Below are positions 21,201 to 34,627 of a stretch of DNA of 64,000 nt, in pieces. The DNA lies in assembly GCA_035688805.1 (NCBI GenBank), contig DASSMQ010000006.1, positions 15,012 to 79,011 on the forward strand. The letters are read 5' to 3'. The position numbers were made by a program, and so were the translations under genes. Numbering within the stretch: the first letter of the stretch is position 1; every line of letters starts with the position of its first letter. The notes beneath the pieces were generated by a model. The model worked only from the letters and a program-made list of their open reading frames with translations. It searched no databases and was not told the DNA's origin. This DNA is from Candidatus Limnocylindrales bacterium (GTDB lineage: Bacteria > Chloroflexota > Limnocylindria > Limnocylindrales > CSP1-4).

Positions 21201-21965
21201 CGGGGTGGGCTCGATCGTCGGCACCGGCGACGCAGTCGGACCGGGGGTGGCCGTCGCCGTCGGACTGGGCGACAGCGTCGGCACGGCGGTCGGCGTGGCC
21301 GTCGGCGTCGGGCTCGGGCTCGCGACGGGGGCAGGGATCGGCGGTGACGCTACATCCTGCGGTCCCGGCGTCGCCGACACGAACCAATCAGCGCCATTGG
21401 CGTTCGTGTCGATGGCGTTGCCGAGGACTCCACCAGGGCGCCGTTCGAGGCTGGATCCCGCGGGTGGCGCGGCAGCCGCCGTCCCCTCGACGAAGGCGTT
21501 GGTCGCATCACCCCAGCCGATCGCGTCGATCACCGAACCACCGACCACGCGCAGCGCGACCGACCCTCCGGTCGCGGCGAAACCGCCCGAGTACGTCGCA
21601 TCGCCGAACCCGACGTAGGAGCCAGCGCCATTGACGATGAGCGTCCGCTGTCCGGGACCAAGGATCGTCGACGTCGACCAGGTCGCCTTGCGCGTGACCG
21701 TCGAGCCGGTCGACGTCGCGTACACGACCTCGAGCCCGACCAGATCGGCAGGACCCGTACCCTGATTGGCGATCTCGACGAACTCGTCCGATGCGCTCGA
21801 GCCGCCGGTCTGGATCTCCGACACGACGAGCGTGGATACCGGCCACGCGGCCGACGCCGCGAGTGCGACGTCCCCCAGCCGTGCGCTGTGTGTGGGTCCG
21901 CTCGACAGGCAGACGGCGACGACGAGGGCGAGCGCGGTGGTCCCCGCGCGCCGGGCGCGTTGCAT
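18294..21965 (-). CDS. large surface-anchored protein with an N-terminal lamin-tail domain (LTD), Pro/Thr-rich linkers and a C-terminal TM anchor
   Basis: 1223 aa with a signal peptide. ISEIQTGGSSASDEFVEIANQGTGPADLVGLEV is the LTD signature. Three PT-rich linkers are present. The C-terminus LLGLTGVGALSVVAATLRRRHARR is a TM segment plus a basic stop-transfer. Confidence 0.8.
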   Translation of the reverse strand: MQRARRAGTTALALVVAVCLSSGPTHSARLGDVALAASAAWPVSTLVVSEIQTGGSSASDEFVEIANQGTGPADLVGLEVVYATSTGSTVTRKATWSTSTILGPGQRTLIVNGAGSYVGFGDATYSGGFAATGGSVALRVVGGSVIDAIGWGDATNAFVEGTAAAAPPAGSSLERRPGGVLGNAIDTNANGADWFVSATPGPQDVASPPIPAPVASPSPTPTATPTAVPTLSPSPTATATPGPTASPVPTIEPTPAPMPEPTAPPSPAPTPEPTVPPTPEPTVPPTPAPTPEPTVPPTPEPTMPPTPEPTPVPTVSPAPTPTPPPTTSIVAARALPDGSVVTISGVLTTDLGALEAGRTAFVQDATGGIALYLDAVVVDPIAAGTAIHVHGEVDSRYAQRTLRITQGAVMVDGNPGVPPALGTTTGGATELLEGTRLEAQGSVTGADEALADGTAFSIDDGSGPVRVVVTPTAVAGRPVSQGTMVTAVGPLGQRDSSGTGTGGYRLYVTAPGDLQLALPTSTPVPTSTPAPSPTSAPSTTPTEDPTATPEPTPTADMTATPTVTPTPIPTPTATSAPPAEAMAIGTARTMPVGTSVAIRGVVTAEPGRVGTPALFPVQDATGALIVRLPAELPAPSRGQVVWVRGPLADPYGQTEIRPLASDLHVEGVGVLPEPAVVPPSGPDESSEAKLVRFDGLVVVRPVKSTSNDITVTIETSDGTRVRVMTDASSGLGTSAFDLWARYRVTGIAGQRASKKDQPDGYRIWARDPADVVLTVPAPTPTPSPSHAPTPTPKPKPNGSTTTGGTPTVLSIAAARRVTDRDVAIEAVVTAPATLLDSTGRRIVVQDPSGAIEVLVPKTASAPGVGSRIRAVGRIGSAYGAPRLRATSLDRLGSASIPAPLRVAGALGAAHTWRLVSIAGRVDAVHKLGDRWRAEVISGAQSLVVIGQPGAAIPSTVLGAGGTAEIVGIVRPAYPSATDRRPAVLPRGSADVHVTSVPRASDRRSGGDSGVAVTSTEGPVLSSGAPGVGRTVADADLADLEALLGATVRVGGLVVELRPTGFRLDDGTSVGSIVLTGEAAGWLGLIEPRDAINVVGRVRRDEDGQTVVVVDDPSTIVLGSGLDGLGNPTPASSPEAGTAAIGTTGERSAPEMQVAGFGADPGLLPGAGASLLGLTGVGALSVVAATLRRRHARRLVAARVATRLASIGGRARPPEGVGRTVNGG
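21040..21200. repeat. tandem 24-bp repeats encoding (PTPEPTVP)n in the LTD protein linker
   Basis: ggctccggcgtgggcggcacggtc repeats about six times. The same repeat appears in the antisense ORFs as VGSGVGGTVGSGVG. Confidence 0.7.
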
Positions 21966-22968: not shown

Positions 22969-25900
22969 CTAGCCGAGCCGACGCATGCCGGCATGCCCGA
23001 GCTGTCGGACCCCACCAGGTTGCTCCGGCCCGCCGACCGTGGCGACCACCTCGGGGAGTGGCTTGATGTCGCGAGCGACGAGGTTGACGACCTTGCCTTC
23101 GCGCTGGAGCTCACCATCGACCAGCAGCAGGGCGTGCCGGCGGACCACGCCGCGTAACCGTTCCCAGACGTTCGGCCAGAGGGTCACATTCACCATCCCG
23201 GTCTCGTCCTCGAGCGCCAGGAAGACCGTGCCCTTGGCGGTCATCGGATGCTGCCGGGTGACGACTAGTCCTCCCACCCGGACCCGGCCCGGCCGCCGAT
23301 CGGCCAGTGACGCATTCGGCACCGCCCCGAGTCGATCGAGCGCGGTCCGGAAGAGCCCGACCACCTGCCGGCGGGCATCGACCCCCAGTACCGCATAGGC
23401 GTCACCGACCCGCTCGGACTCGGTGATCGCCGGCAGGTCGGGCGCATCGGTCGCCGGGAGTCGGAGATCCAGCGGCCGGCCCGCTGCCGCGTGCCGCTTG
23501 CCGGCGGCCCGCCCGAGGGCACGGACCGTCCGGCCATCCATCCGACCGCGTGACGCCCCGGCCACCTCGCGCAACTGCCAGAGCAGCTCCCGCCGTGGCC
23601 GGTCCAACGAGTCCATCGCGCCGCTGCGGATGAGTCGCTCGAGCACCTCCTCGGGCAGGCCCGTCCGTTCGACCACGTCGACCAGGTTCCGATACGGGCC
23701 GCGGGCCCGCTCGGCATCGAGCGCTGCCTGGTGCTGCTCCCCGATGCCCTTCACCAGGCCGAGCCCGAGCCGGACCGCCCAGCCGGCGGTCACCGCCGGC
23801 GTCCAGCGCTCCCGCGACGACGCGGAGGGAACGATGCACGCGGAGGAGACGACCGGGTCGGGCTGTGCGTCTGGGCCGATCCACTCGGTCGTCGTCGCGT
23901 AGCACGACGCGTTGACGTCCACGGGCAGCACCGCTACCCCGTGGCGCTTCGTGTCGTTGACCAGGACCTCGACCGGATAGAAGCCCATCGGCTGGGCATT
24001 GATCAGCCCGACCAGGAACTGGGCGGGGTAGAACAGCTTGAGGAAGGCCGACTCGTAGGCGGTCCGGGCGAAGGCCGCCGCGTGCGACTTGGCGAACCCG
24101 AAACTGGCGAACGCGGCGACCTGGCGAAACAGCTCCTCGGCGGTCTCGAGCTCGAGCCCGGGCTGGCGCAGCGCCCCGTCGACGAACCGGTGATGGAGCT
24201 TCTCCATCTCGCGCGATGAACGCCAGGTCCCCATCGCTCGCCGGAAGCCATCCGATTCGGCCGGGCTGAACCCGGCCACCTCGATGGCGATGCGCATGAC
24301 CTGCTCCTGGTAGAGGATCACTCCGAGCGTGTCCTTCAGCACGGGCTCCAGGCTGGGGTGCAGGTAGACGACCGGCTCGAGGCCCTGCTTGCGGCGCAGG
24401 TACGGGTGGACGGCGTTGCCCTGGATCGGCCCGGGTCGGATGATCGCCACCTCGACCACCAGGTCATCGAGCCTGCCCGGCCGCGACTTGGGGAGCGTCT
24501 GCATCTGTGCCCGGCTCTCGACCTGGAAGACGCCCACCGTGTCGGCCGCCTGGAGCATCGCGAAGACCTCGGGCACGTCCTCGGGCAGGCGGTCGAGATC
24601 GAGGCAGACCGCACAGTCATGCTCGATGAGCTGCAGGGTCTCGTCCATCGCGGCGAGCATCCCGAGACCGAGCAGGTCGAGCTTGATGAGCTTGAGCGTC
24701 TCGACGTCGCGCTTGTCGAACTGGACGACCACCCGGTCGGGCATCGTGGCCCGCTCGAGCGGGGCGAGGTCGATGAGGGGGGCGGCCGTGACGAGCATGC
24801 CGCCGCTATGGATGCTGAGGTGACGCGGGAACCCGTCGATCCGGGCGCAGAACTCGAGCCAGCGCTCCCAGTGGGAGAGGCCGACCGTCGAGCCGCCACG
24901 GGCCTGCGGCGGTGGCTCGGGCACGATGCGGGCGACCGAGCTCGCATTCGCTGGGGTCGGCGGGGGATCCCACATGATCGGCCTGCCGAGACGATCGGTC
25001 TTCCGTGGTGGCGGCAGGGTCATGCCGCTCTCCGGATCGACCGGGACGGGTCCCTGGCCCAGCGGGGGTGTGCCATAGCCCGTCCCCCGCCCGGCTCGCA
25101 GCCAGGCCACGCTCGCCGGCGTGTCGCCCGGTCCGCCCTCGTCGTCGGACGGCCCGCGGCGGATCGTCGTGACCGGTGCGAGCGGGTCCTCGCGGAACGC
25201 GGCATCACCACGCTCCGTGGCATTGCCCTCCTCGGTGGTCGATTCCCGGAGCCAGGCGAACGGACGCGGCGCGTCCGGGTCCACCGGGGTCCGCGGCTGC
25301 TTCCACGGTGGCACCTTCCCGATCAGGGGCAGCCGCTTGTTCAACTGGCCCATGCCATCGACCAGCCCGTGCGCCTCCGCCTGTTCGGCCGCGCCGGCCT
25401 CCGGTGGCAGGCCCTCCCCGGATCGTCGGAAGAACTCGGCGAACCCGCCGTCGGCCTCGAGGTCGCGCCGGACCATGACCGAGTCGTACGTCTCGAGCGC
25501 CTTCGCGACCCGATCTACCAGGGGCCGCGGGAAGCCGAGCGCATAGCCCACCTCGCGCACCGCCGAACGCGCCCGGTAGGTGACAAGGTTGCAGACCATC
25601 CCCGTGTGCTCCGGCCCGTAGCGTCGGTAGATGTACTGGATGACCTCCTCGCGCCGAGCCGAGCTGAAGTCGATGTCGACGTCCGGGTACGTCGTCCGAC
25701 CCGGATTGATGAACCGCTCGAACAGGAGGTCGTGGGCGATCGGCTCGACGCGGCTGATCCCGAGGGTGTACGACACGATCGAACTGGTCGCGCTCCCCCG
25801 ACCCTGGGCCGGGATGCCCTGCTCCCTCGCGAAGCGCATCAGGTCCCAGCAGATGAGGAAGAACTCGGCAAGGCCGGCTCGCTCGATGACGTCGAGTTCA

Positions 25901-27072
25901 TGGGCGAGCCGCTTGACCACCGCCGAGGTCAACGGGTGATAGCGCCGCCGTGCGCCGGTCCAGCACAGCTCGGAGAGATGAGAGAACGGTGTCTCACCCT
26001 CAGGGACCGGGAAGCCCGGGAACCGGTACTGCTCGAACCCGAGATCGACCGAGCACGATGCCGCGATCTCGACCGAGTTGGCGATCCCCTCGCGCCAGGC
26101 ACGGGCAGCACTCGACTCGAGCGAGTCGCCGAGCGTTGCCAGCGCCTCGCCCGATTTCAGGAAGGACTCGCCGTCCGGCCGACGCAGATCGGCCAGCGTG
26201 TCGAGCGTCCGGCCGTGTCGGATGGCGGTCAGCACGTCGTGGAACTCGCGGTCGTCGGCCGTCGCGTAATGGACGTCGTTGGTGACCACGACGGGCAGGC
26301 CGAGCTCGATCGCCAGCGCGGCCGATTCGGCGACCAGCCAGTCGTCGTCGGGCAGGAGATGGTGCGACAGCTCGATGAAGAACCCGCTCGTCGACGGGCC
26401 ATCGCCGCGGCCGAAGAGCGTCGCATAGCGCTCGGCGACAGCGCGCGCGCCGGCCCGATCGCCGACCCGCAGGCGTCGCGCGATCTCCCCCTCGCGACAA
26501 GCCGACAGCGCGACCAGGCCATCGTGATCAGCCTCGAGCAGGTCGTGCGTGATGCGCGGCATCGCCTTGGTCCCGGCCAGGTTGGCGTGCGACACCAGGC
26601 GACTCAGGCTGCGCCAGCCGGCAGGGGTCCGGGCGAGGAGCACGAGGTGTGGGCCGCGGGCCCGGTCCCCGACCCCGCGCACATCTTCCTTGACCAGGTC
26701 GCGGTGACCGGGCAGACGGGCGCGATCGGGTCGCGGCCGCACGGGCCGGCCGTCGGTGATCGTCGGCTCGACGGCCGGAGACTCGCCCTGCCGGCGGCGT
26801 GGCCGGCGGCGAGACGGGACCACCACCCGGCCGGGATCGGGCACGGCCGTATCGATCAGGTCGATCTCGGTCCCGACGACGCCAGGGAGGCCAGCCTCCT
26901 CGGCGGCACTCATGAACCGGACGGCGCCGTACAGCCCGTTCCGATCCGTCGCAGCGAGGGCGGTCAGCCCCAGGGCGACGGCCCGCTCGACCAGGTCGTC
27001 CGGCGGCGAGGCGCCATCGAGGAACGAGAAGTTGGTGTGGGCGTGGAGTTCGGCGTATGGGATGGTCGCCAC
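22969..27072 (-). CDS. dnaE2: error-prone DNA polymerase DnaE2 (ImuC) with lineage-specific Pro-rich insertions
   Basis: 1367 aa with a GTG start. The PHP-domain N-terminus is ATIPYAELHAHTNFSFLDGAS and the Pol III alpha core is ...GFPRHLSIHSGGMLVT... There is about 130 aa of extra low-complexity sequence before the GFPRHL motif. Confidence 0.92.
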   Translation of the reverse strand: MATIPYAELHAHTNFSFLDGASPPDDLVERAVALGLTALAATDRNGLYGAVRFMSAAEEAGLPGVVGTEIDLIDTAVPDPGRVVVPSRRRPRRRQGESPAVEPTITDGRPVRPRPDRARLPGHRDLVKEDVRGVGDRARGPHLVLLARTPAGWRSLSRLVSHANLAGTKAMPRITHDLLEADHDGLVALSACREGEIARRLRVGDRAGARAVAERYATLFGRGDGPSTSGFFIELSHHLLPDDDWLVAESAALAIELGLPVVVTNDVHYATADDREFHDVLTAIRHGRTLDTLADLRRPDGESFLKSGEALATLGDSLESSAARAWREGIANSVEIAASCSVDLGFEQYRFPGFPVPEGETPFSHLSELCWTGARRRYHPLTSAVVKRLAHELDVIERAGLAEFFLICWDLMRFAREQGIPAQGRGSATSSIVSYTLGISRVEPIAHDLLFERFINPGRTTYPDVDIDFSSARREEVIQYIYRRYGPEHTGMVCNLVTYRARSAVREVGYALGFPRPLVDRVAKALETYDSVMVRRDLEADGGFAEFFRRSGEGLPPEAGAAEQAEAHGLVDGMGQLNKRLPLIGKVPPWKQPRTPVDPDAPRPFAWLRESTTEEGNATERGDAAFREDPLAPVTTIRRGPSDDEGGPGDTPASVAWLRAGRGTGYGTPPLGQGPVPVDPESGMTLPPPRKTDRLGRPIMWDPPPTPANASSVARIVPEPPPQARGGSTVGLSHWERWLEFCARIDGFPRHLSIHSGGMLVTAAPLIDLAPLERATMPDRVVVQFDKRDVETLKLIKLDLLGLGMLAAMDETLQLIEHDCAVCLDLDRLPEDVPEVFAMLQAADTVGVFQVESRAQMQTLPKSRPGRLDDLVVEVAIIRPGPIQGNAVHPYLRRKQGLEPVVYLHPSLEPVLKDTLGVILYQEQVMRIAIEVAGFSPAESDGFRRAMGTWRSSREMEKLHHRFVDGALRQPGLELETAEELFRQVAAFASFGFAKSHAAAFARTAYESAFLKLFYPAQFLVGLINAQPMGFYPVEVLVNDTKRHGVAVLPVDVNASCYATTTEWIGPDAQPDPVVSSACIVPSASSRERWTPAVTAGWAVRLGLGLVKGIGEQHQAALDAERARGPYRNLVDVVERTGLPEEVLERLIRSGAMDSLDRPRRELLWQLREVAGASRGRMDGRTVRALGRAAGKRHAAAGRPLDLRLPATDAPDLPAITESERVGDAYAVLGVDARRQVVGLFRTALDRLGAVPNASLADRRPGRVRVGGLVVTRQHPMTAKGTVFLALEDETGMVNVTLWPNVWERLRGVVRRHALLLVDGELQREGKVVNLVARDIKPLPEVVATVGGPEQPGGVRQLGHAGMRRLG

Positions 27073-27113
27073 GGCTGCTCCGGTCGGTGGCCGGTCGGAT
27101 CGGGGCGGACAGT

Positions 27114-27131
27114 ATAGAACGCATGTTCTAT
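27114..27131. promoter_or_regulatory. LexA SOS box (Gram-positive Cheo type, GAAC-N4-GTTC) between the divergent dnaE2 and GH18-like genes
   Basis: atAGAACgcatGTTCTat is a perfect palindrome. It lies about 40 to 60 nt upstream of the dnaE2 start and about 56 nt upstream of the GH18-like gene. Confidence 0.75.
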
Positions 27132-27186
27132 CAGGGGAAGCCCACCCATCCGCAGGACCAATGAGGGGCTGGACGACCGCAACTCG

Positions 27187-28725
27187 ATGGGCTTACCTGA
27201 CCGGGTGCGATCGACCCGTCACCGTCGCCATGCCGCCTGGTCTCGCCTCGTCCTCACCCTGACCGCCGCGGTCACGCTCTTGGCCGGGATCGCGGGCCCG
27301 ATCCCCGCTGTCCGGGCCGCGGACATCCGACCGCGGATCACCGGGATCGCGCCCCTGACCCACGAGGTCTACGGGTATCTCCCCTACTGGCGCCTGGATG
27401 CCGGCACGGTCGACCGGCTGCACTACGACCTCGTGTCGACCATCGCGTTCTTCGGCCTCGGGATCCTCGGGACGGGGGCGATCGACACGTCCTGGATCGG
27501 CTATCGGGCGTACATCGGCGACGACGCGGCGGCGGTCACCAATGCCGCCCACGACCACGGGGTTCGGGTCGTTCCCACGTTCCAGCTGTTCGATTCGGCG
27601 ACCGGCGCGCCCAAGATGACGGCGTTCCTCGGCAGTCGGTCGGCGCAGGACCGGTTCATCGGCGAGGCGCTCGACCTCATGGCCGCACGGAGCGCCGACG
27701 GTGCCGGGCTCGACTTCGAACCGGTCGGCGCCCTGGCCGCGCGCGCCTCGGAGTACGTCGCCTTCGTGGCCCGGTTCCGGGGCGCGATGAAGGCCCGCTT
27801 CCCGGGAGCCACGCTGGTGACCGCGACCTCGGCTGGGGCGACCCAGGAGCTCGTCCAGGGTGTCGCCCCATACGTCGATCATCAGATGGTGATGACCTAC
27901 AACTACCGCTCCTCCGGCTCGACGATCGCCGGCGCGGTTGCCCCGCTCGATCACGCGACGAGGAACGTCAAGAAGCACATCACCCGGATGCTGGGCTGGG
28001 TGCCGGCACGCTCCTTGCTGCTCGGCGAGCCCTATTACGGATACGACTGGCCGGTCACCAGCGCCATCCCGAACGCGACGGTCCAGTCGGACAAGTCGAC
28101 CTATGGCCCCGTCCGGAGCGTCACCTACGCCAGTGCCCGCGATTTCCTGGCCGCGCACCCGAGTGTCGTCCGGCGCTACGACTCTCTCGAGGGGAGCGCC
28201 TTCTACTGGTACTACGACAGCACGAAGCGGACCTACCGCGAAGCCTATTTCGACGATGAGCGGAGCCTCGCCGCGAAGGACGACTACGCGATCGCCACCG
28301 GCCTTGGCGGGATCGGCATCTGGACGCTCGACAACGACCGCGGCTACCGGCAGCTGTGGGACGTCCTCCGTTCGAAGTTCTACGCCCCGGTCCTGAGCAT
28401 GTCGGTCCGGGCGTCGGTCAGCGACCTGACCCGGGTATCCGGGGTCGTGTCCGTGGTCGTCCATGCCGGAGCCACGAATACGGGGACCGTGCCGCTGACC
28501 GGATCGCTGCGCTGGGCGATCCGCGACCCAGGTGGCCGAGTCGTGGCCAGCGGTCATTGGCCGACCACCGTCGTCTACCCTGGCCGGAGCACGAGTCACG
28601 CCGTCCGTGCCGCCCTCGGGCTGGCCACCTCCCTGCCAGCCGGCACCTACCACCTTCGGGTGCGGTTCGTGACGTCGACGAAGGCCTACGGGCCGCCGGA
28701 CGTGGCCTTCCGCCAGCCGTACTGA
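27187..28725 (+). CDS. secreted glycoside hydrolase family 18-like protein (chitinase-like; the catalytic motif is degenerate, DGAGLDFE)
   Basis: 512 aa with signal peptide ...LTAAVTLLAGIAGPIPAVRAA. It has a GH18 (beta/alpha)8 barrel with a DxxxxDxE motif, then a C-terminal beta-rich domain. Confidence 0.75.
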   Translation: MGLPDRVRSTRHRRHAAWSRLVLTLTAAVTLLAGIAGPIPAVRAADIRPRITGIAPLTHEVYGYLPYWRLDAGTVDRLHYDLVSTIAFFGLGILGTGAIDTSWIGYRAYIGDDAAAVTNAAHDHGVRVVPTFQLFDSATGAPKMTAFLGSRSAQDRFIGEALDLMAARSADGAGLDFEPVGALAARASEYVAFVARFRGAMKARFPGATLVTATSAGATQELVQGVAPYVDHQMVMTYNYRSSGSTIAGAVAPLDHATRNVKKHITRMLGWVPARSLLLGEPYYGYDWPVTSAIPNATVQSDKSTYGPVRSVTYASARDFLAAHPSVVRRYDSLEGSAFYWYYDSTKRTYREAYFDDERSLAAKDDYAIATGLGGIGIWTLDNDRGYRQLWDVLRSKFYAPVLSMSVRASVSDLTRVSGVVSVVVHAGATNTGTVPLTGSLRWAIRDPGGRVVASGHWPTTVVYPGRSTSHAVRAALGLATSLPAGTYHLRVRFVTSTKAYGPPDVAFRQPY

Positions 28726-28800
28726 CGGGCCCTCCCACGACGGGACCATCGATCCCGCCCACCCGTGCAACAACTCGCCGCGCTCCGGCGTCTCTTGGCC

Positions 28801-28944
28801 ATGCACGCTCCCAGCCACCTCGATCGCCCGCTTCGACCGGCCGCTGCGGCCGCGTTCCGGACGGCCCTCGCGGTGGTGGTGGCGTCGCTGCTGATCCTCG
28901 TCGTCCTCCCCGCGATGCTCGCGGTCCAGGCGACGACGATCTAG
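28801..28944 (+). CDS. candidate 47-aa single-TM peptide
   Basis: It is an ATG..TAG ORF encoding MHAPSHLDRPLRPAAAAAFRTALAVVVASLLILVVLPAMLAVQATTI. The ORF track misses it, and there is no clear RBS. Confidence 0.3.
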   Translation: MHAPSHLDRPLRPAAAAAFRTALAVVVASLLILVVLPAMLAVQATTI

Positions 28945-29050
28945 CACCAACCGACGTCTCGGCGCCTGGGGGCTCGGGACGATCGTCGGCGATCGACTGC
29001 GATAGCCGATCCGCCGACCTGCCGGATCGCTGGTGAGCGAGGATCCGGCC

Positions 29051-29083
29051 ACAGGACCCCGTCGCTGGGGGCGACGGGGTCCT
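29051..29083 (+). terminator. strong hairpin (14-bp perfect GC-rich stem) downstream of the GH18-like gene and peptide 1
   Basis: caggaccccgtcgc-tgggg-gcgacggggtcctg. Confidence 0.5.
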
Positions 29084-29130
29084 GTCACGTCCGGGGGCCG
29101 ATCGGCCCGCAGCCCGTAGACTCATCCGAC

Positions 29131-29670
29131 ATGACATCGCGAACCCGCCGCCTCCTGATGACGATCGTGACGATGGCACTTCTGGGCGGGTGTGGCGGCA
29201 CGTCGCCCGGCAGCCCCGGACCGTCGACTGCCGCGACGGCGACCGCGGCCGCTTCGACGCCGGCCGGGGGACCGAGCACCAGCGCATCGGCCGAACCGAC
29301 CGCCACGACCCCGCGTGCCGGTCCCGCGGTGGGTCAGACCGACACCGACTGGGGCCGGATCTGGGACGCCGTCCCGACCGATTTCCCGCGGTTCCCAGGA
29401 TCGAAGGTCGCCGATGACACGGGCGAGGCGCCGGTCAGCGCCCGGTTCGCGGTCGACGGCGGCGATCCCAAGGCGATGGCCGCCTGGATGCAGTCGGCGA
29501 TGGAGACGGCCGCGTACAGTACGGAGGGCCTCAACGGGCCCCTCGAGGATGGCAGCATGGTCCTCGAATCGGTCGGGGATGGCGGCTGTCGCATCCAGAC
29601 GACGATCGCCCCGCTCGGCGGGACGGTCTTCGTGACGATCCGGTACGGCGCCGCCTGCCCGCTGCACTGA
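29131..29670 (+). CDS. lipoprotein (lipobox LLGGC) with a low-complexity Ala/Thr/Pro linker
   Basis: 179 aa starting MTSRTRRLLMTIVTMALLGGCGG. Confidence 0.65.
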   Translation: MTSRTRRLLMTIVTMALLGGCGGTSPGSPGPSTAATATAAASTPAGGPSTSASAEPTATTPRAGPAVGQTDTDWGRIWDAVPTDFPRFPGSKVADDTGEAPVSARFAVDGGDPKAMAAWMQSAMETAAYSTEGLNGPLEDGSMVLESVGDGGCRIQTTIAPLGGTVFVTIRYGAACPLH

Positions 29671-29691
29671 CCACAGGAGCATCGATCGCGC

Positions 29692-29799
29692 ATGCAGCCC
29701 CGCTCCACCGACTTCCTTGGTGCCGCGCTCCTGGCCATCGTCCTGATCGGGCTGGTGGTGATCCTGTTCGTCGGCAATATCCCGGCGGCCACCGCCTGA
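29692..29799 (+). CDS. candidate 35-aa single-TM peptide
   Basis: An AGGAGC RBS sits about 14 nt upstream. It encodes MQPRSTDFLGAALLAIVLIGLVVILFVGNIPAATA and is paralogous to the next peptide. Confidence 0.4.
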   Translation: MQPRSTDFLGAALLAIVLIGLVVILFVGNIPAATA

Positions 29800-29904
29800 A
29801 TCCGGTAGCTGCGCGCGGTTCTCGTCGCGCGTTGTGCTCGCCCCGCCGCTATGCTGTGGCTGGATCGACCGGGACTTCGGTCCGGACAGGGGGAACGCCG
29901 CTCC

Positions 29905-30009
29905 ATGCAATCGGCACGACCGCGTGATCTGGGTGTCCTCGTCCTCGCGATGGGGGTCCTGCTCGTTCTGTTCGTGGTGAGCCTGACGCTCGGGTCGCCG
30001 TTGCGCTGA
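29905..30009 (+). CDS. candidate 34-aa single-TM peptide
   Basis: An AGGGGGA RBS lies upstream. It encodes MQSARPRDLGVLVLAMGVLLVLFVVSLTLGSPLR. Confidence 0.4.
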   Translation: MQSARPRDLGVLVLAMGVLLVLFVVSLTLGSPLR

Positions 30010-30028
30010 GTCCGGTCCGGCACGGACG

Positions 30029-30277
30029 TCAGTCGTACAGACGTTCGATATGCCAGGTGCCGGCGATCCGGTCGAGATAGACGAGCGCGAGCCAGCGTTC
30101 GCCCACGACCTTCGCGTACTCGCGGGCGATCGGATCGCGCCACCACGACTCATCGACCCGCCAGCGGTTGCACACCTCGACCGCCTCGCGACGCCCGTTC
30201 CAGCGGATGGCGATGAGCCGTCCATCGCCATCGAGCTCGACGTCGATGCGCGGATGCTCGCGCAGGAGGCGGGTCAT
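30029..30277 (-). CDS. 82-aa conserved hypothetical protein translationally coupled to imuB (an alternative start at 30286 gives MAGMTR..)
   Basis: Its ATG overlaps the imuB TGA (ATGA). It encodes MTRLLREHPRIDVELDGDGRLIAIRWNGRREAVEVCNRWRVDESWWRDPIAREYAKVVGERWLALVYLDRIAGTWHIERLYD. Confidence 0.5.
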   Translation of the reverse strand: MTRLLREHPRIDVELDGDGRLIAIRWNGRREAVEVCNRWRVDESWWRDPIAREYAKVVGERWLALVYLDRIAGTWHIERLYD

Positions 30278-31548
30278 GCCGGCCATCCGTCGCGCCCGTC
30301 GTCGGCGAGCCCGACTGAGCGCCACGCCCAGCGTGCTTCCGCCAGCGGCGCCTCCGGGTCGGTGATGGCGACCCGGCGGATGCGATCCTCCCCGTAGGTC
30401 AGCGCCAGCCTCGCCAGCTGCCACCCGAGTCGGGCCGTCCGGGCGGCCTGGGGCACGAACAACGGCAGTTGTTGGCCCGCCGCCGGGGTCGTGCCGCGCA
30501 GTTCCAGGTCGATCCGCTGGACCGCTGCCGGCGGCGGCTGGCGCTCGAGGCGCGCGAACAGCAGACGCTCGACGGCTTCGGGGTCCGCGGTGGGTTCCGG
30601 GAAGCGCTGCTCGACCTCCATCCGCGGCGACGTACCGACCGGCGCGAACGCAAGGTCCAGTTCCAGCGTCAGCACTGCCCGATCCGCGGCGAGCCCTCGA
30701 CCGGTGAGCTGGGCGGCCAGCGCCGCCACTAGGCGATGGAGGACGAACCGGAGCGGCTCGAGCTCCTCGACCGGGGGTTCGATGGGCAGGGCGAGGGCCA
30801 GGCGCTCGGTCGCGTGGCGAGCCCCGAACGGCTCGGTCTCCTCGCCTCGAGCACGAGCATGGAGCCGCGCGCCCTCCTCGCCGAACCGGGCGATCAGCGC
30901 GGATCGCGGGAGGACCGCCACCGCGCCGATCCGACGCAGTCCGAAGCGGGTCAGGCGTGCCCGGACATCGGGGTCGGTGGTGAGCAGCCCGGACGGACGG
31001 TCGGCCAGGAACGCCGCCTCACCCCCGGGTGGGACGATGATCGGACCGTCCGGGGTGGCGGCCAGCGCCGCGACCGAGGCGGCGAACCGGGTGCCGGCGA
31101 TCCCGGCGCGCGGTGACGGCTCCCCGGGGAGGGCGCCTCGCAGCGCCGCACCGGCCCGCTCGATCAGTCGGGGCTCGGCCCCCCACAGCGGCTCGAGCCC
31201 ATCGATCCCGACCTCGAAGAACCCGAATGAGGCCGCCGATGGGTCGCTGGTCCCGGCCAGGCTCGGGCTGGATCGCCCGAGCGCCTCGAACACGGCCTCG
31301 GCAGCTCCCCGATCCGCATCGGGATCGGGGTCGATGAAGGTCGCCTCAGGGACGAGTCGGTGGGCGCTCCCGAGCGGCATCCCGCGTCGGACGCCGAGCG
31401 CCCGAGCTGTCGGATCGGCGTCGAGGACCGGACCCGGATCCCAGGGTCGCCCGCCCAGCACGAGCGGGCCGGTCGGGAAGGGCTCGGAGCGTCGAGCCCG
31501 GGCCAGGTGGAGCGGCAGGTGCGGCACGAACAGGTGCAGACGTCGCAT
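30274..31548 (-). CDS. imuB: ImuB, the Y-family polymerase-like mutasome subunit
   Basis: ORF 30274..32127 is trimmed to the Met of MRRLHLFVPHLPLHLA, which is the typical ImuB/DinB-like N-terminus. Downstream are the motifs ..LGVRRGMPL.. and ..AIAGTRFAASVAA. Confidence 0.78.
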   Translation of the reverse strand: MRRLHLFVPHLPLHLARARRSEPFPTGPLVLGGRPWDPGPVLDADPTARALGVRRGMPLGSAHRLVPEATFIDPDPDADRGAAEAVFEALGRSSPSLAGTSDPSAASFGFFEVGIDGLEPLWGAEPRLIERAGAALRGALPGEPSPRAGIAGTRFAASVAALAATPDGPIIVPPGGEAAFLADRPSGLLTTDPDVRARLTRFGLRRIGAVAVLPRSALIARFGEEGARLHARARGEETEPFGARHATERLALALPIEPPVEELEPLRFVLHRLVAALAAQLTGRGLAADRAVLTLELDLAFAPVGTSPRMEVEQRFPEPTADPEAVERLLFARLERQPPPAAVQRIDLELRGTTPAAGQQLPLFVPQAARTARLGWQLARLALTYGEDRIRRVAITDPEAPLAEARWAWRSVGLADDGRDGWPA

Positions 31549-32719
31549 GGTCGGTCTCGCGATCGGGGGCCTCATGAACGGGGGCGTGGACGGGAGGCGG
31601 CGGAGCGGCCGACAGCCGGAGGTCGACCGGATCGGCCCAGCGGGTGGGTTCCTTGCTTCCCGCGTACGAGCTTGCAGGCACGGCAAGTACCACGGGCGAG
31701 GACCGCGTACGGGCCTCATCTCCGAGCGATCCCTTGCCTTCGGGGCAAGGAACGGCGGCGATGGCCCGGCTATCGGTCGACGGCACCTCATCACTTGCGA
31801 GGACCGCAAGTTCCACGACCATCTCGCCTGGCCGTGCAGCGGTACTTGCCGTGGAGGCAAGCCCTTGCGCCGCGGGCACGTCGAGCGCGTCGAACAGGAG
31901 GGCGTCGTCGGCGAGGCACGCATCGCGCTCACCGCCCTCCGCGTAGAGGATCCGCAGGATGGCTCGGCGTCCCGGCGGACCGTGGCGGTTGTGGGCGACG
32001 AGCGCCTCGGTCCGCTGCCCGACGACGTCCCGGCCGAGACGGACCCAGGACCGCCGAGCGAGCTCCAGCCGGATGCCGGTCGATTGGTCGACCGCGGTCG
32101 TGAGGCCACCGCCCGACCCGGGCGCATCGAGGATCAGGAGCAGCGTCTCCGCCCGCCGGGCGAGAGCGGCGAGTCGATGGAGGCGATCGGCGATCTTCGC
32201 CGGCGTGTCGGTCCTGGCCAGACGGCCACCGGGCAGGTCGATGACGAGCAGGTCGACCGAGCGGCCGGCCAGCAGGCTGCCGGCGATGCCCAGGCCCTCG
32301 TCCAGGCTGGCCGGGGTGATGACCACGAGCCATTCGAGCCGGATGCCGCGGCTGACGGCTTCGACCGGGTCGAAGCTGCGCGACAGGTCCAGCCACGCCA
32401 CGACCGAGCCCTGGGCCTGGGCCTCCGCGGCGACCCGCAGGCTGAGGGTCGTCCGCCCGCTCGAGCCTTCCCCCCGGATCGCGACGCTGGCCGAGGTCGG
32501 CAACCCGCCCGGTCCGAGGATCGCGTCGAGGGCGGCGAAGCCGGTGTGGATGATCCGGTCGGCGGGCCGTGGGTCGGCGGAGGGTGACGGTCCCGGCATC
32601 TCTGTGGGGACCGGTGCCGGAGCCAGGGCCAGGGCGCCGACCACGCTCGGAGCTGCAGCACCCCAGCGGGCCCGGAGGCCCGCGACGGCGGCATCCACAT
32701 CACCCCGACCGGTCGACAT
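31346..32719 (-). CDS. imuA: ImuA (RecA-fold, SulA/ImuA' family). The core is about the first 255 aa. The 3' 200 codons are low-complexity, run through a hairpin-repeat cluster and overlap imuB, so the true stop is uncertain.
   Basis: The RecA-like core reads TGFAALDAILGPGGLPTSASVAIRGEGSSGRTTLSLRVAAEAQAQGSVVAWLDL. A LexA box lies 15 to 30 nt upstream. There is no in-frame stop until 31346. Confidence 0.7.
   Translation of the reverse strand: MSTGRGDVDAAVAGLRARWGAAAPSVVGALALAPAPVPTEMPGPSPSADPRPADRIIHTGFAALDAILGPGGLPTSASVAIRGEGSSGRTTLSLRVAAEAQAQGSVVAWLDLSRSFDPVEAVSRGIRLEWLVVITPASLDEGLGIAGSLLAGRSVDLLVIDLPGGRLARTDTPAKIADRLHRLAALARRAETLLLILDAPGSGGGLTTAVDQSTGIRLELARRSWVRLGRDVVGQRTEALVAHNRHGPPGRRAILRILYAEGGERDACLADDALLFDALDVPAAQGLASTASTAARPGEMVVELAVLASDEVPSTDSRAIAAVPCPEGKGSLGDEARTRSSPVVLAVPASSYAGSKEPTRWADPVDLRLSAAPPPPVHAPVHEAPDRETDHATSAPVRAAPAAPPGPGSTLRALPDRPARAGRATLGSGSGPRRRSDSSGARRPTRDAARERPPTRP
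31664..31861. repeat. cluster of four short hairpins sharing a CTTGC(C)/(G)GCAAG stem at roughly 55 to 60-bp spacing
   Basis: The hairpins are gtacgagCTTGCaggcacgGCAAGtac, cCTTGCCttcggGGCAAGg, aCTTGCgaggaccGCAAGt and CTTGCCgtggaGGCAAG, followed by gcaagcccttgc. The flanking spacers share cctcatc and gaggaccgc. Confidence 0.5.
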
Positions 32720-32732
32720 CGGACGTCGATAG

Positions 32733-32748
32733 TAGAACAGATGTTCTA
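32733..32748. promoter_or_regulatory. LexA SOS box (GAAC-N4-GTTC) upstream of imuA, in the intergenic region shared with the divergent response regulator
   Basis: tAGAACagatGTTCTa is a perfect palindrome, 15 to 30 nt upstream of the imuA ATG. Confidence 0.75.
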
Positions 32749-32816
32749 GTCAGGCAAGCCGTTTCCGTCACCCGATCGACACGAGCGATGGCTAGCCTCG
32801 GCCTACCATGCTGCCG

Positions 32817-33566
32817 ATGCCGACCTCGACCTCCGACCCCGCGGTCCCGACCGCGCCGATCCTCGTCGTCGACGACGACGCGAAGATCGTCCGGCTCGTG
32901 CGGACCTACCTCGAACGGGACGGGTTCTCGGTCGTGACCGCCGCCGACGGCCCGGCCGCGCTCGCCGCGATCGAGGCCCATGCGCCCGCCCTCGTCGTGC
33001 TGGACCTGATGCTCCCCGAACTGGACGGGCGGGCCGTCATCCGGGCCGTCCGCCGCGACGACGAGGCCGGCCGCACGCCGATCCTCGTCCTGTCCGCGCG
33101 TAGCTCGACCATCGACCGGATCGCCGGACTCGAGGATGGGGCCGACGACTACCTGCCCAAGCCGTTCTCACCCGCCGAGCTCGTGCTCCGGGTGAAGTCG
33201 ATCCTGCGCCGTGCGGCGCCGGCCGGGGCAGGCCTGGCGGATGCCCGACGACCATCGACTCCGCTGCTCCGCCACGCCGATCTCACCGTCGACCCGTCCC
33301 GCCACGAGGTCCGCCGCGGCGACGCGGCCATCGACCTCACCCGGGTCGAGTTCAAGCTGCTGTCGACGATCCTGGCGGCGGATGGCCGCGTCCTGTCGCG
33401 CGACCAGCTGCTCGACGCCGTGTACGGCCACGAGGCGGCCGACGTCCTCGACCGGACCATCGACGTGCATGTCCGCCGATTGCGCGACAAGCTCGACGAT
33501 GACCCGGAAGCGCCGCGCTATGTCCAGACCGTGCGCGGCATCGGGTATCGCGCCGCCCGGACGTGA
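32817..33566 (+). CDS. OmpR/PhoB-family response regulator
   Basis: It has a receiver domain (ILVVDDD...LDLMLPELDG...DDYLPKPF) and a winged-helix C-terminus (...IDVHVRRLRDKL...VRGIGYR). Confidence 0.9.
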   Translation: MPTSTSDPAVPTAPILVVDDDAKIVRLVRTYLERDGFSVVTAADGPAALAAIEAHAPALVVLDLMLPELDGRAVIRAVRRDDEAGRTPILVLSARSSTIDRIAGLEDGADDYLPKPFSPAELVLRVKSILRRAAPAGAGLADARRPSTPLLRHADLTVDPSRHEVRRGDAAIDLTRVEFKLLSTILAADGRVLSRDQLLDAVYGHEAADVLDRTIDVHVRRLRDKLDDDPEAPRYVQTVRGIGYRAART

Positions 33567-34627
33567 TCGGTCGAGGTATCGCCGCACGCATCGCCCTGGC
33601 GGCCATCGCGAGCGCCGCGGTCGGCCTGGTCATCCTCGCCATCGGTGTGGCCGTGGTCGGTGGCGGGGTCTTCACCGAGTTGATGATGAAGGCCGGCGAC
33701 TCGGCCGAGCACGCTCGACGGATGTACGACGACTCGGTGGTCACGGTCGTGGTCGCGGCCTCCGCCCTGGCCGTGCTGGCGAGCCTCGGTCTAGCCGTCG
33801 CCCTCGCCCGGATGCTGGCCCGGCCGCTCGACGAGATCAGTGGCGCCGCTCGACGGATCGCCGACGGTGACTACGCGGCCCGCGTCCCGCGCGAGGGGCC
33901 CGAGGAGCTGGCCAGCCTGGCCGACTCATTCAACCAGATGGCCGCTTCGCTCGAGCGTCAGGAGCAGATGCGGCGCGACTTCATCGCCAACGCAGCCCAT
34001 GAGCTACGGACGCCGTTGACCAATCTGCAGGGCTACCTCGAAGCGCTGCGCGACGGCGTCATCGTGGCCGATGCCGCGACCTACGAGTCGCTCCACGAGG
34101 AGGCCGATCGCCTCGTCCGCCTGTCGCGCTCGCTCGACGCGCTCGCGGAGGGCGACGCCGACACGAGCCCGGCGACACGCATCGAGCTCGATCTCGCGGC
34201 TGCGATCCGCTCAGCGATCGACCTCGCCGCGCCGGCGATCGAACGCGCCGGGCTGCGCCTGGAGACCGGCCTTCCCCCCTCGCTGCCGGCCCGGGCGGAT
34301 CCAGACCGGGTCGCCCAGGTCCTCGCCAACCTCCTCTCGAACGCCATCCGGTACACGGCACGCGGCGGCCTGGTCACGGTCCGCGCCGAACGGCGTCCAG
34401 CCGATGTCCTGGTCTCGGTGACGAATACCGGCGACTCGATCCCGGCCGACGACCTCGATCGGGTATTCGAGCGGTTCTACCGGGTCGAGAAGTCACGCGA
34501 TCGCGCTCGGGGAGGCGCCGGCATCGGGCTGGCCATCGTGAAGCAGCTGGTCGAATCGGGCGGCGGTCGAGTCGGCGCCGAATCGGCTGAAGGTCAGACG
34601 CGCTTCTGGTTCAGCATCCCGGCCTGA
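33563..34627 (+). CDS. sensor histidine kinase (2 TM, HAMP, HisKA, HATPase_c)
   Basis: It has the H-box ANAAHELRTPL, the N-box LLSNAIRYT and the G-boxes GGAGIGLAIVKQL. Its start overlaps the response regulator's stop. Confidence 0.9.
   Translation: MIGRGIAARIALAAIASAAVGLVILAIGVAVVGGGVFTELMMKAGDSAEHARRMYDDSVVTVVVAASALAVLASLGLAVALARMLARPLDEISGAARRIADGDYAARVPREGPEELASLADSFNQMAASLERQEQMRRDFIANAAHELRTPLTNLQGYLEALRDGVIVADAATYESLHEEADRLVRLSRSLDALAEGDADTSPATRIELDLAAAIRSAIDLAAPAIERAGLRLETGLPPSLPARADPDRVAQVLANLLSNAIRYTARGGLVTVRAERRPADVLVSVTNTGDSIPADDLDRVFERFYRVEKSRDRARGGAGIGLAIVKQLVESGGGRVGAESAEGQTRFWFSIPA

Follow-up and report, generated by a model that had tools for sequence, protein, structure and literature searches.

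A split SOS-type mutagenesis cassette with two LexA-type operators in an uncultured Candidatus Limnocylindria bacterium

Introduction

In Mycobacterium tuberculosis, the mutasome genes imuA'-imuB and dnaE2 lie at separate loci, each under LexA control (PMC3901139, citing Erill et al. 2006). Firmicutes and Actinobacteria have GAAC-N4-GTTC as their LexA motif (PMC4951493), and a variant of it has been described for LexA of Chloroflexi (same article, citing Fernandez de Henestrosa 2002). Here, we analysed a mutasome locus in a 64-kb stretch of DNA (contig DASSMQ010000006.1; "the window" denotes this whole stretch) from an uncultured soil bacterium of Candidatus (Ca.) Limnocylindria (Chloroflexota). 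Ca. Limnocylindria, a class that is abundant in soil and freshwater, has no cultured members, and no mention of its SOS genes was found in the literature searched. The locus probably represents an SOS mutagenesis cassette of four genes, split into two units with a LexA-type promoter each, with the genes between the units being passengers under their own control.

Two further groups of described systems bear on this locus. The ImuB-C domain was defined by Aravind et al. (PMC3765255) and stands alone in some dnaE2 operons (PMC6511836). The division inhibitors YneA, SosA, DivS and ChiZ (Rv2719c), which are single-transmembrane (TM) or cell-wall proteins, are SOS-induced and encoded divergently from lexA, an arrangement seen in many bacteria (PMC6851548, PMC6051672), and ChiZ was reported to have wall-hydrolase activity (PMC6851548). 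A previous reading of the window (hereafter the original prediction) had set the split cassette apart from canonical, contiguous ones and regarded damage-induced envelope remodelling or toxin-like peptides beside a mutasome as apparently undescribed. Its view of what is new does not hold, as LexA control of both cassette parts is textbook knowledge for M. tuberculosis (PMC3901139, citing Erill 2006) and YneA, SosA, ChiZ and DivS are known to be divergent from an SOS gene (PMC6851548).

Results

Relatives of the locus were gathered with a DnaE2 scan, retaining one genome per species, which resulted in 79 loci (designated by L numbers). The nearest relatives (61-86% identity in the scan) were all metagenome-assembled genomes (MAGs) labelled Chloroflexota/Ca. 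Limnocylindria, and a second tier of DnaE2 matches (~45%) belonged to Dormibacterota, Eremiobacterota, Binatia and Acidimicrobiia. Four extra metagenome contigs (L206-L209) were included in the comparison. Gene order across the Limnocylindria loci was determined with tblastn, and protein families were assigned by Pfam and NCBIfam profile searches with model cutoffs.

The dnaE2 (imuC) gene (22969-27072, minus strand, GTG start) encoded an error-prone C-family DNA polymerase of 1367 amino acids (aa). It matched NCBIfam NF004225 ("error-prone DNA polymerase") with 1047 bits against a cutoff of 939 and contained the Pfam domains PHP, DNA_pol3_alpha, finger, HHH_6 and OB. The gene in the imuA position (31346-32719, minus strand, 457 aa) encoded a protein with a RecA fold (Pfam RecA, 85.6 bits), like actinobacterial ImuA'. 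Its score with the NCBIfam model ImuA_translesion (26.8 bits) was below the model threshold of 150, and we refer to it as imuA'-like. Its open reading frame (ORF) overlapped imuB by 203 nucleotides (nt; 31346-31548) in another reading frame. The imuB gene (30274-31548, minus strand) encoded a Y-family-like protein of 424 aa without the ImuB-C domain, which matched Pfam IMS (35 bits, cutoff 23.2) and IMS_C, whereas all DinB equivalog models scored far below their cutoffs. The ImuB N-terminus, LHLFVPHLPL, lacked the catalytic DxD found in active Y-family enzymes (IIHVDGDAFF), and ImuB is, as judged from its sequence, a catalytically inactive Y-family scaffold.

A fourth gene (30029-30277, minus strand) encoded an 82-aa protein, and its ATG overlapped the imuB stop codon (ATGA). 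No Pfam or NCBIfam model detected this protein, which was present in all Limnocylindria loci with 59-89% identity. In L046 (Eremiobacterota, E 1e-7) and L059 (E 9e-5), its match was the C-terminal end of a long, fused ImuB. Its C-terminal Trp was conserved, and it shared the pattern W..WW...Y...G.W..E..YD with acidimicrobial ImuB tails. By these matches, the 82-aa ORF is the ImuB-C domain and the fourth mutasome gene. ImuB was split from ImuB-C in Limnocylindria and Dormibacterota and fused to it in Eremiobacterota and Acidimicrobiia. Since ImuB-C is separate, the cassette of the window reads imuA'-imuB(deltaC)-imuB-C, gap, dnaE2.

Two of these proteins contained low-complexity sequence. In DnaE2, an insertion of ~190 aa rich in Pro, Gly, Ala and Arg (residues ~545-735) interrupted DNA_pol3_alpha and also showed as split tblastn matches; it was absent from actinobacterial DnaE2, and the length of DnaE2 in relatives ranged from ~1250 to ~1655 aa. 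The ImuA' of the window contained a low-complexity stretch of ~100 aa (residues 278-377) that was missing in L012.

The window contained two copies of the motif GAAC-N4-GTTC and no more (27117-27128 and 32735-32746), in agreement with the two perfect palindromes that had been predicted before dnaE2 and imuA. This 12-mer alone was not significant (0.61 copies expected; two or more copies in 12 of 100 shuffles). However, both boxes were 16-mers of the form TAGAAC-N4-GTTCTA (27115-27130 and 32733-32748). They were the only two such 16-mers in the window even when two mismatches were allowed, compared with an expected number of 0.09, and none of 100 shuffles reached two. The dnaE2 box was located 42-45 nt 5' of the dnaE2 GTG and the imuA box 13-15 nt 5' of the imuA ATG.

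A program scan of 26900-33000 for sigma-70 promoters and terminators found none, with thresholds that miss weak -35 elements. For this reason, the promoters were taken from alignments, in which the upstream regions of 27 genomes were aligned on the box. At both imuA and dnaE2, the box occupied the spacer between the -35 and -10 elements of a predicted sigma-70-type promoter. The imuA promoter-operator (32729-32757, minus strand) consisted of the -35 element TTGCCT (32752-32757), the box TAGAACATCTGTTCTA (32733-32748) and the -10 element TACTAT (32729-32734). The dnaE2 promoter-operator (27111-27139, minus strand) had the same design with a weaker -35 element (TTCCCC, 27134-27139), followed by the box TAGAACATGCGTTCTA (27115-27130) and the -10 element TATACT (27111-27116). 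Across relatives, the imuA design was cTTGAC-N3-TAGAAC-N4-GTTC-TAnnAT, kept in at least 24 of them, and the TA flank of the box formed the beginning of the -10 hexamer in this alignment. The imuA start codon followed the -10 element after 6-13 nt across relatives (9 nt in the window); this short distance suggests a leaderless or nearly leaderless mRNA.

GAAC and GTTC were invariant at both promoters in the 27 genomes. On the dnaE2 side, TAnnnT adjoined the box in 26 of 27 genomes, compared with only 3 of 27 on the side of the divergent gene, and the operator therefore belongs to a one-directional promoter. To see whether the dnaE2 promoter might be a recent duplicate of the imuA promoter, the two boxes of each genome were compared. 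The N4 spacers of the two boxes were identical within the genome in 10 of 27 cases, which was reached in 0 of 20000 permutations. For the box flanks, similarity within genomes was not significantly raised (p = 0.075).

All Limnocylindria loci had imuA, imuB, imuB-C and then dnaE2 in the same order and on the same strand. Box number and contiguity were counted in the 26 Limnocylindria loci that span both imuB-C and the start of dnaE2. The cassette was interrupted by 0.75-7 kb of opposite-strand genes in 24 of the 26 loci, and a second box was present just 5' of dnaE2 in all 24. Only the imuA box was present in the two contiguous loci (L023 and L026, with gaps of 17-23 nt) and in the Dormibacterota and Eremiobacterota loci with an uninterrupted cassette (L040, L041, L044, L045 and L046). 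In L053 (Dormibacterota), the cassette was split between imuB and imuB-C, and imuA and imuB-C-dnaE2 were each preceded by a box. The Acidimicrobiia loci L052 and L055, also split, had two boxes each, and the metagenome contigs L206-L209 showed the same split and the same dnaE2 box as the window. Thus, an interrupted cassette carries a copy of the operator at dnaE2 and a contiguous cassette carries none. This agrees with what has been described for such cassettes in general and, as a natural experiment, lends support to the earlier proposal that LexA control over all parts of the cassette is maintained by selection.

The comparison makes it very solid that the locus is a split mutasome of the LexA (SOS) type with each part behind its own operator. 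It bears out the original prediction of a split SOS mutasome with a Cheo-type box for each part, as well as the distance of ~3 kb between dnaE2 and imuA-imuB, which is filled with opposite-strand envelope genes. Its statement that canonical cassettes are contiguous ignored the well-known split cassette of Actinobacteria. Whether the contiguous loci L023 and L026 are ancestral or re-fused was not decided by a neighbour-joining tree of DnaE2, in which either scenario required two events and which was distorted by L013, L018, L024 and L037. The dnaE2 frames of these four MAGs contained 3-16 internal stops, which are probably assembly frameshifts.

The identity of the binding protein was approached with a metagenome scan for TTGAC-N2-4-TAGAAC-N4-GTTCTA, which resulted in 120 loci. 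In 13 of these, the design was followed directly by a lexA homologue as the first ORF; 5 loci had an imuA/imuB-like ORF in this place, 4 had one for a Y-family polymerase and 1 had a recA-like ORF. The same promoter-operator design preceded lexA in L213-L216, which were reached by a LexA homologue search. The lexA-linked metagenome contigs mostly had a G+C content of 40-64% and are thus from other lineages, and the LexA homologue search reached other lineages of 56-64% G+C. When the window and the fetched Limnocylindria loci were searched for lexA and recA by tblastn with Escherichia coli sequences, only the RecA-fold imuA' gene was found. LexA binding is therefore something that we infer, and with the motif, its promoter context and its occurrence before lexA taken together, the protein that binds the operators is very probably LexA.

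The loci collected in these searches contained other genes behind the same design. In L213-L216 (56-61% G+C), operons of lexA, a gene for an FtsK/SpoIIIE-like ATPase and a 125-aa ORF (with a faint DUF6504 match in L215) were located behind the design TTGACA-N3-AGAAC-N4-GTTCTATAAT, with two overlapping boxes in L215 and L216. The commonest first downstream gene in the metagenome scan, in at least 23 of the 120 loci, encoded an uncharacterised multi-TM protein of 230-300 aa without a Pfam match (L095, L105, L106, L108, L118, L122, L123, L128, L130, L134, L137, L146, L151, L158, L161, L163, L171, L172, L175, L177, L183, L194 and L201). Its motif was LLAFEIFNYSTTDFALxDLLGDLxFxGxRWATILAIAFCGIDFAGIARLF, and it may be an unrecognised membrane protein of the SOS regulon of another lineage (43-63% G+C).

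The interval between dnaE2 and imuB-imuA' had been predicted to encode a GH18-like protein, a lipoprotein and three tiny TM peptides. All of these were present, but the 82-aa ImuB-C gene (30029-30277) in the same interval had been missed. The GH18 gene (27187-28725, plus strand) encoded a secreted or membrane-anchored protein of the YdhD/YaaH type with 512 aa, or 506 aa if translation starts at GTG 27205. It matched Pfam GH18 with 80.4 bits (cutoff 29.6, 2.6e-22), and its best match in the PDB was YdhD (3cz8, 1.3e-13), followed by YaaH and SleL. The N-terminus was signal-peptide-like and the C-terminus carried an extension of ~110 aa. The catalytic motif DxxDxDxE read DGAGLDFE, with D-x-E kept and the second Asp replaced by Gly. 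The gene was found only in the window, L007, L010, L013, L018, L019, L033 and L206-L209, and soil metagenome contigs encoded identical GH18 proteins in the same gene order. It was absent from L011, L012 (the nearest relative of the window), L014-L017, L021 and L069, which keep the dnaE2 box. GH18 identities fell in step with DnaE2 identities, which fits vertical descent with repeated loss.

The original prediction placed the GH18 start ~56 nt from the dnaE2 box on the opposite strand, and the ATG was indeed 56-58 nt from the box in an intergenic region of 114 bp. From this geometry it had derived a possible bidirectional operator, at which LexA would also repress GH18 and, if transcription reads through, the peptide and lipoprotein genes, so that DNA damage would lead to wall remodelling or a division block. 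The short distance speaks for such an arrangement, as do the divergent pairing of GH18 and dnaE2 in all 11 orthologous loci (46-78% protein identity) and the precedent of envelope proteins under SOS control, among them the hydrolase-like ChiZ, whose genes are divergent from an SOS gene (PMC6851548). Against it stands the anatomy of the promoters. The operator is asymmetric, with TAnnnT next to the box almost exclusively on the dnaE2 side, and no second box or half-site was found near GH18. A bipartite element 40-45 nt beyond the box could be the promoter of GH18 itself (TGGACG-N17-TTACCT, 27170-27198, plus strand, followed after 6 nt by GTG 27205; inferred from the motif). The pattern TGGAC[AG]-N17-18-TT[AC]C[CT]T, defined after these sequences had been seen, occurred only in the window, L010, L013 and L206-L208 within 647 kb, followed after 5-6 nt by ATG or GTG. 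If this motif is a promoter, the box is centred at about -85 from the predicted start, which is farther than a repressor working by occlusion usually reaches. In addition, GH18 is dispensable, having been lost in L011, L012, L014-L017, L021 and L069 while the box was retained. A LexA-repressed bidirectional promoter was therefore not upheld, and both this arrangement and direct control of GH18 by LexA are unlikely.

Between the box and GH18, the window (27153-27175), L010, L013 and L206-L208 shared the conserved sequence GGGAC[CG]AA-N9-10-CTGGAC, the 3' half of which is the candidate -35 element. This sequence reads in frame as "TNGxLD" 5' of GH18 and was considered as an N-terminal extension of the protein. 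Neither the window nor L206 had a canonical start codon upstream of it, and a DNA element is the better reading.

The next gene downstream of GH18 encoded sp47 (28801-28944, plus strand), a tail-anchored single-TM peptide of 47 aa with the family motif LLILVxLPAxLAxQA and no Pfam or NCBIfam match. Promoters recognised by extracytoplasmic function (ECF) sigma factors have AAC in the -35 element, CGTC in the -10 element and a spacer of 16 +/- 1 nt (PMC3426412). A candidate promoter of this type, GCAACA-N16-CGTCT (28767-28793, plus strand), ended 7 nt before the sp47 ATG and was the only match in the window to G[AC]AAC[AC]-N16-CGTC[AT], for which 0.07 copies were expected. Related loci (~0.7 Mb) contained 28 copies of the motif, nearly all of them in the mutasome gap and on the strand opposite to dnaE2. 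After 23 copies, from about as many genomes, the start codon of an sp47-family peptide of 38-48 aa followed at a distance of 7 nt (range 2-10). Because the motif blocks were conserved while the spacer was not, and the frame shifted between genomes, the motif is a DNA signal rather than a trace of coding conservation. The distance of 7 nt to the start codon predicts a leaderless mRNA. A perfect, G+C-rich 15-bp hairpin with a 5-nt loop followed 3' of sp47 (29051-29085, plus strand); it was terminator-like but had no T run.

The LexA operator did not overlap the sp47 promoter, which was located 1.6 kb from the box in the window (>1.5 kb in genomes with GH18) and 14-69 nt from it in genomes without GH18. 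With a promoter of its own and a hairpin behind it, sp47 speaks against the proposal that the entire 3-kb block shares the dnaE2 box, and control of the small peptides by that box is very unlikely.

The remaining genes of the block encoded a lipoprotein of 179 aa (29131-29670, plus strand) with the lipobox LLGGC and a C-terminal domain with a DcrB/Mog1/PsbP-like fold, and two paralogous single-TM peptides of 35 aa (29692-29799, plus strand) and 34 aa (29905-30009, plus strand). The 34-aa peptide had the motif RPRDLGxLxL and was conserved in L010, L012, L013, L017-L019 and L021. No LysM or other Pfam domain was detected in the small peptides. From their sequences, the block proteins look like envelope proteins, and none points to DNA metabolism. 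The gap contained sp47, the lipoprotein and the 34/35-aa peptides in crown-group Limnocylindria and unrelated genes for membrane proteins in basal Limnocylindria (L009, L024, L027, L029 and L042). Genes for TetR, DUF4260, DUF4386, PhoX-like and HAD proteins were inserted sporadically.

The conserved position of the block allows two further explanations. GH18, sp47 and the lipoprotein might form a division or envelope module that has been kept beside dnaE2 throughout the class by SOS-coupled expression, which is slightly less probable than direct LexA control of GH18. If true, either LexA would act on GH18 from about -85 or the derepressed dnaE2 promoter would stimulate the GH18 promoter back-to-back with it, and the module would be a Chloroflexota counterpart of YneA/ChiZ that is attached to the mutasome rather than to lexA. 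Alternatively, something other than LexA might link the block functionally to the mutasome, for example an envelope-stress ECF sigma factor or transcription-coupled supercoiling between back-to-back promoters, with selection keeping the block in place. Such a link would fit two observations. In all contexts sampled, the lipoprotein and sp47 families occurred nowhere but between imuB-C and dnaE2, and other genes (TetR, DUF4260, PhoX-like, HAD) are gained and lost in this gap. However, simple vertical inheritance also yields strict synteny within one class, the gap of basal Limnocylindria holds unrelated genes, and a DcrB-like lipoprotein fold and a wall-hydrolase-type GH18 do not point to DNA metabolism; we regard this route as improbable, even more so than the module. 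Taken together, the sequence evidence gave no support to a damage-induced envelope programme.

That the palindromes are not LexA sites at all, being chance matches or operators of another regulator, could appeal to the insignificance of the 12-mer by itself and to the lexA gene not being seen in the window, but is highly improbable given the unexpectedness of the 16-mer in the window, its retention at both promoters in 27 genomes, where GAAC and GTTC do not vary, the box number that follows cassette contiguity, the environmental contigs in which lexA itself is preceded by the same design, and the fact that GAAC-N4-GTTC is established as a LexA motif in Firmicutes and Actinobacteria and occurs in variant form in Chloroflexi (PMC4951493).

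The idea that the block came from a mobile element was rejected: the G+C content of the window was flat across the block region (0.70-0.71), a scan of the block and its immediate neighbours for integrase and transposase genes found none, and no tRNA gene was located inside or directly beside the block. No RNA family was detected in the block by an Rfam search. The genes around the locus were housekeeping genes, such as pgk and gap. Downstream of dnaE2, a gene at 18294-21965 (minus strand) encoded a protein of 1223 aa with a lamin-tail domain and OB/BOF folds, which was syntenic in L206-L209. On the other side of the locus, an OmpR/MtrA-like pair was divergent from imuA, with a response regulator at 32808-33566 and a histidine kinase at 33563-34627. 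The imuA box was 61 nt from the ATG of the response regulator (intergenic region 32720-32807), the same geometry as between GH18 and dnaE2. This pairing of a two-component system with imuA recurred in L009, L010, L012, L015, L019, L024, L034, L037, L069 and L210.

Discussion

In our view, the locus is probably an SOS mutagenesis cassette of four genes that is split into two units with LexA-type promoters and surrounds a block of independently controlled passengers. Its ancestral form would have been one operon behind one LexA operator. The opposite-strand envelope block would then have come between imuB-C and dnaE2 and broken the operon, leaving dnaE2 on a promoter of its own with the design of the imuA promoter. 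From established LexA biology, bound LexA would occlude RNA polymerase at both promoters, and DNA damage would lead to RecA-stimulated cleavage of LexA and release both units together, so that all four parts of the mutasome would appear simultaneously. The intervening genes would be resident passengers under their own control. sp47 would be expressed as a leaderless mRNA from the ECF-sigma-type promoter, with the transcript ending at the hairpin, and the GH18 wall hydrolase (YdhD/YaaH-like) would probably have its own promoter, with LexA positioned at about -85 from the predicted start site.

Several observations weigh against this reading. All 11 GH18 orthologues sampled were immediate, divergent neighbours of dnaE2 across a short intergenic region, and no member of the lipoprotein and sp47 families turned up outside the mutasome gap in the contexts sampled. 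The pairing and this confinement could reflect functional coupling rather than mere inheritance. The candidate GH18 promoter motif is post hoc and comes from six related loci, and its -10 element (TTACCT/TTCCTT) lacks the usual A at -11. In this clade, the dnaE2 promoter has a poor -35 element (TTCCCC). In the 64-kb window, tblastn with E. coli RpoE, a crude test, found no cognate ECF sigma gene, and a search with E. coli LexA found no lexA gene there or in the fetched Limnocylindria loci.

With the cassette read as split, the reach of the LexA-controlled imuA'-imuB-imuB-C/dnaE2 mutasome extends to Ca. Limnocylindria. The current understanding of SOS regulation is unchanged by the locus, but its clean comparative pattern is worth a line in a survey of the SOS regulon. 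A conserved ECF-type promoter that would drive a leaderless membrane peptide of ~40 aa is a testable side product.

The closest described counterpart is the split cassette of M. tuberculosis and other Actinobacteria. As in the window, imuA'-imuB and dnaE2 are on separate promoters, each with GAAC-N4-GTTC (PMC3901139, citing Erill et al. 2006), and the cassette combines a RecA-fold ImuA' with a catalytically dead ImuB. Unlike in M. tuberculosis, the two parts are only 3 kb apart in the window and have kept the ancestral order and strand, ImuB-C is encoded by a separate gene, and the host belongs to an uncultured class of Chloroflexota. The box flanks also differ, with TA in the window and TCGAAC...GTTCGA in the mycobacterial/actinobacterial cassette. 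A small gene between the Y-family-like gene and dnaE2 (imuC) is known from Kyrpidia tusciae, where it encodes ImuB-C (polY-imuB-C-dnaE2; PMC6511836, PMC3765255), and from Deinococcus deserti, where a 243-bp ORF is located in lexA-imuY-(243-bp ORF)-imuC (PMC3901139). The 243-bp ORF probably corresponds to the 82-aa ImuB-C of the window. Both of these cassettes were reported without imuA, whereas a RecA-fold imuA'-like gene is present here.

The envelope genes of the block resemble YneA, SosA, DivS and ChiZ in being small single-TM or wall-acting proteins encoded divergently from a gene under LexA-type control. In contrast to these systems, the partner is dnaE2 rather than lexA, LysM domains are absent, the peptide promoter is of the ECF type and the promoter anatomy argues against LexA control of the envelope genes. 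The TM helix of sp47 is located at the extreme C-terminus, whereas the single TM helix of the inhibitors is followed by an extracellular C-terminal part, often with LysM. The sp47 promoter shares AAC in the -35 element, CGTC in the -10 element and the 16-nt spacer with ECF sigma promoters (PMC3426412), but differs from the typical case in that no cognate sigma or anti-sigma gene was found at the locus and that the start codon follows 7 nt after the -10 element. The Bacillus peptidoglycan-acting GH18 glycosidases YdhD and YaaH (SleL) were the best matches of solved structure for the GH18 protein, in which D-x-E is kept as GLDFE. The Ca. Limnocylindria host is not known to sporulate. The GH18 protein further differs from YdhD and YaaH by the lack of LysM repeats, by its N-terminal signal or anchor and C-terminal extension of ~110 aa, and by Gly in place of the second Asp of DxxDxDxE.

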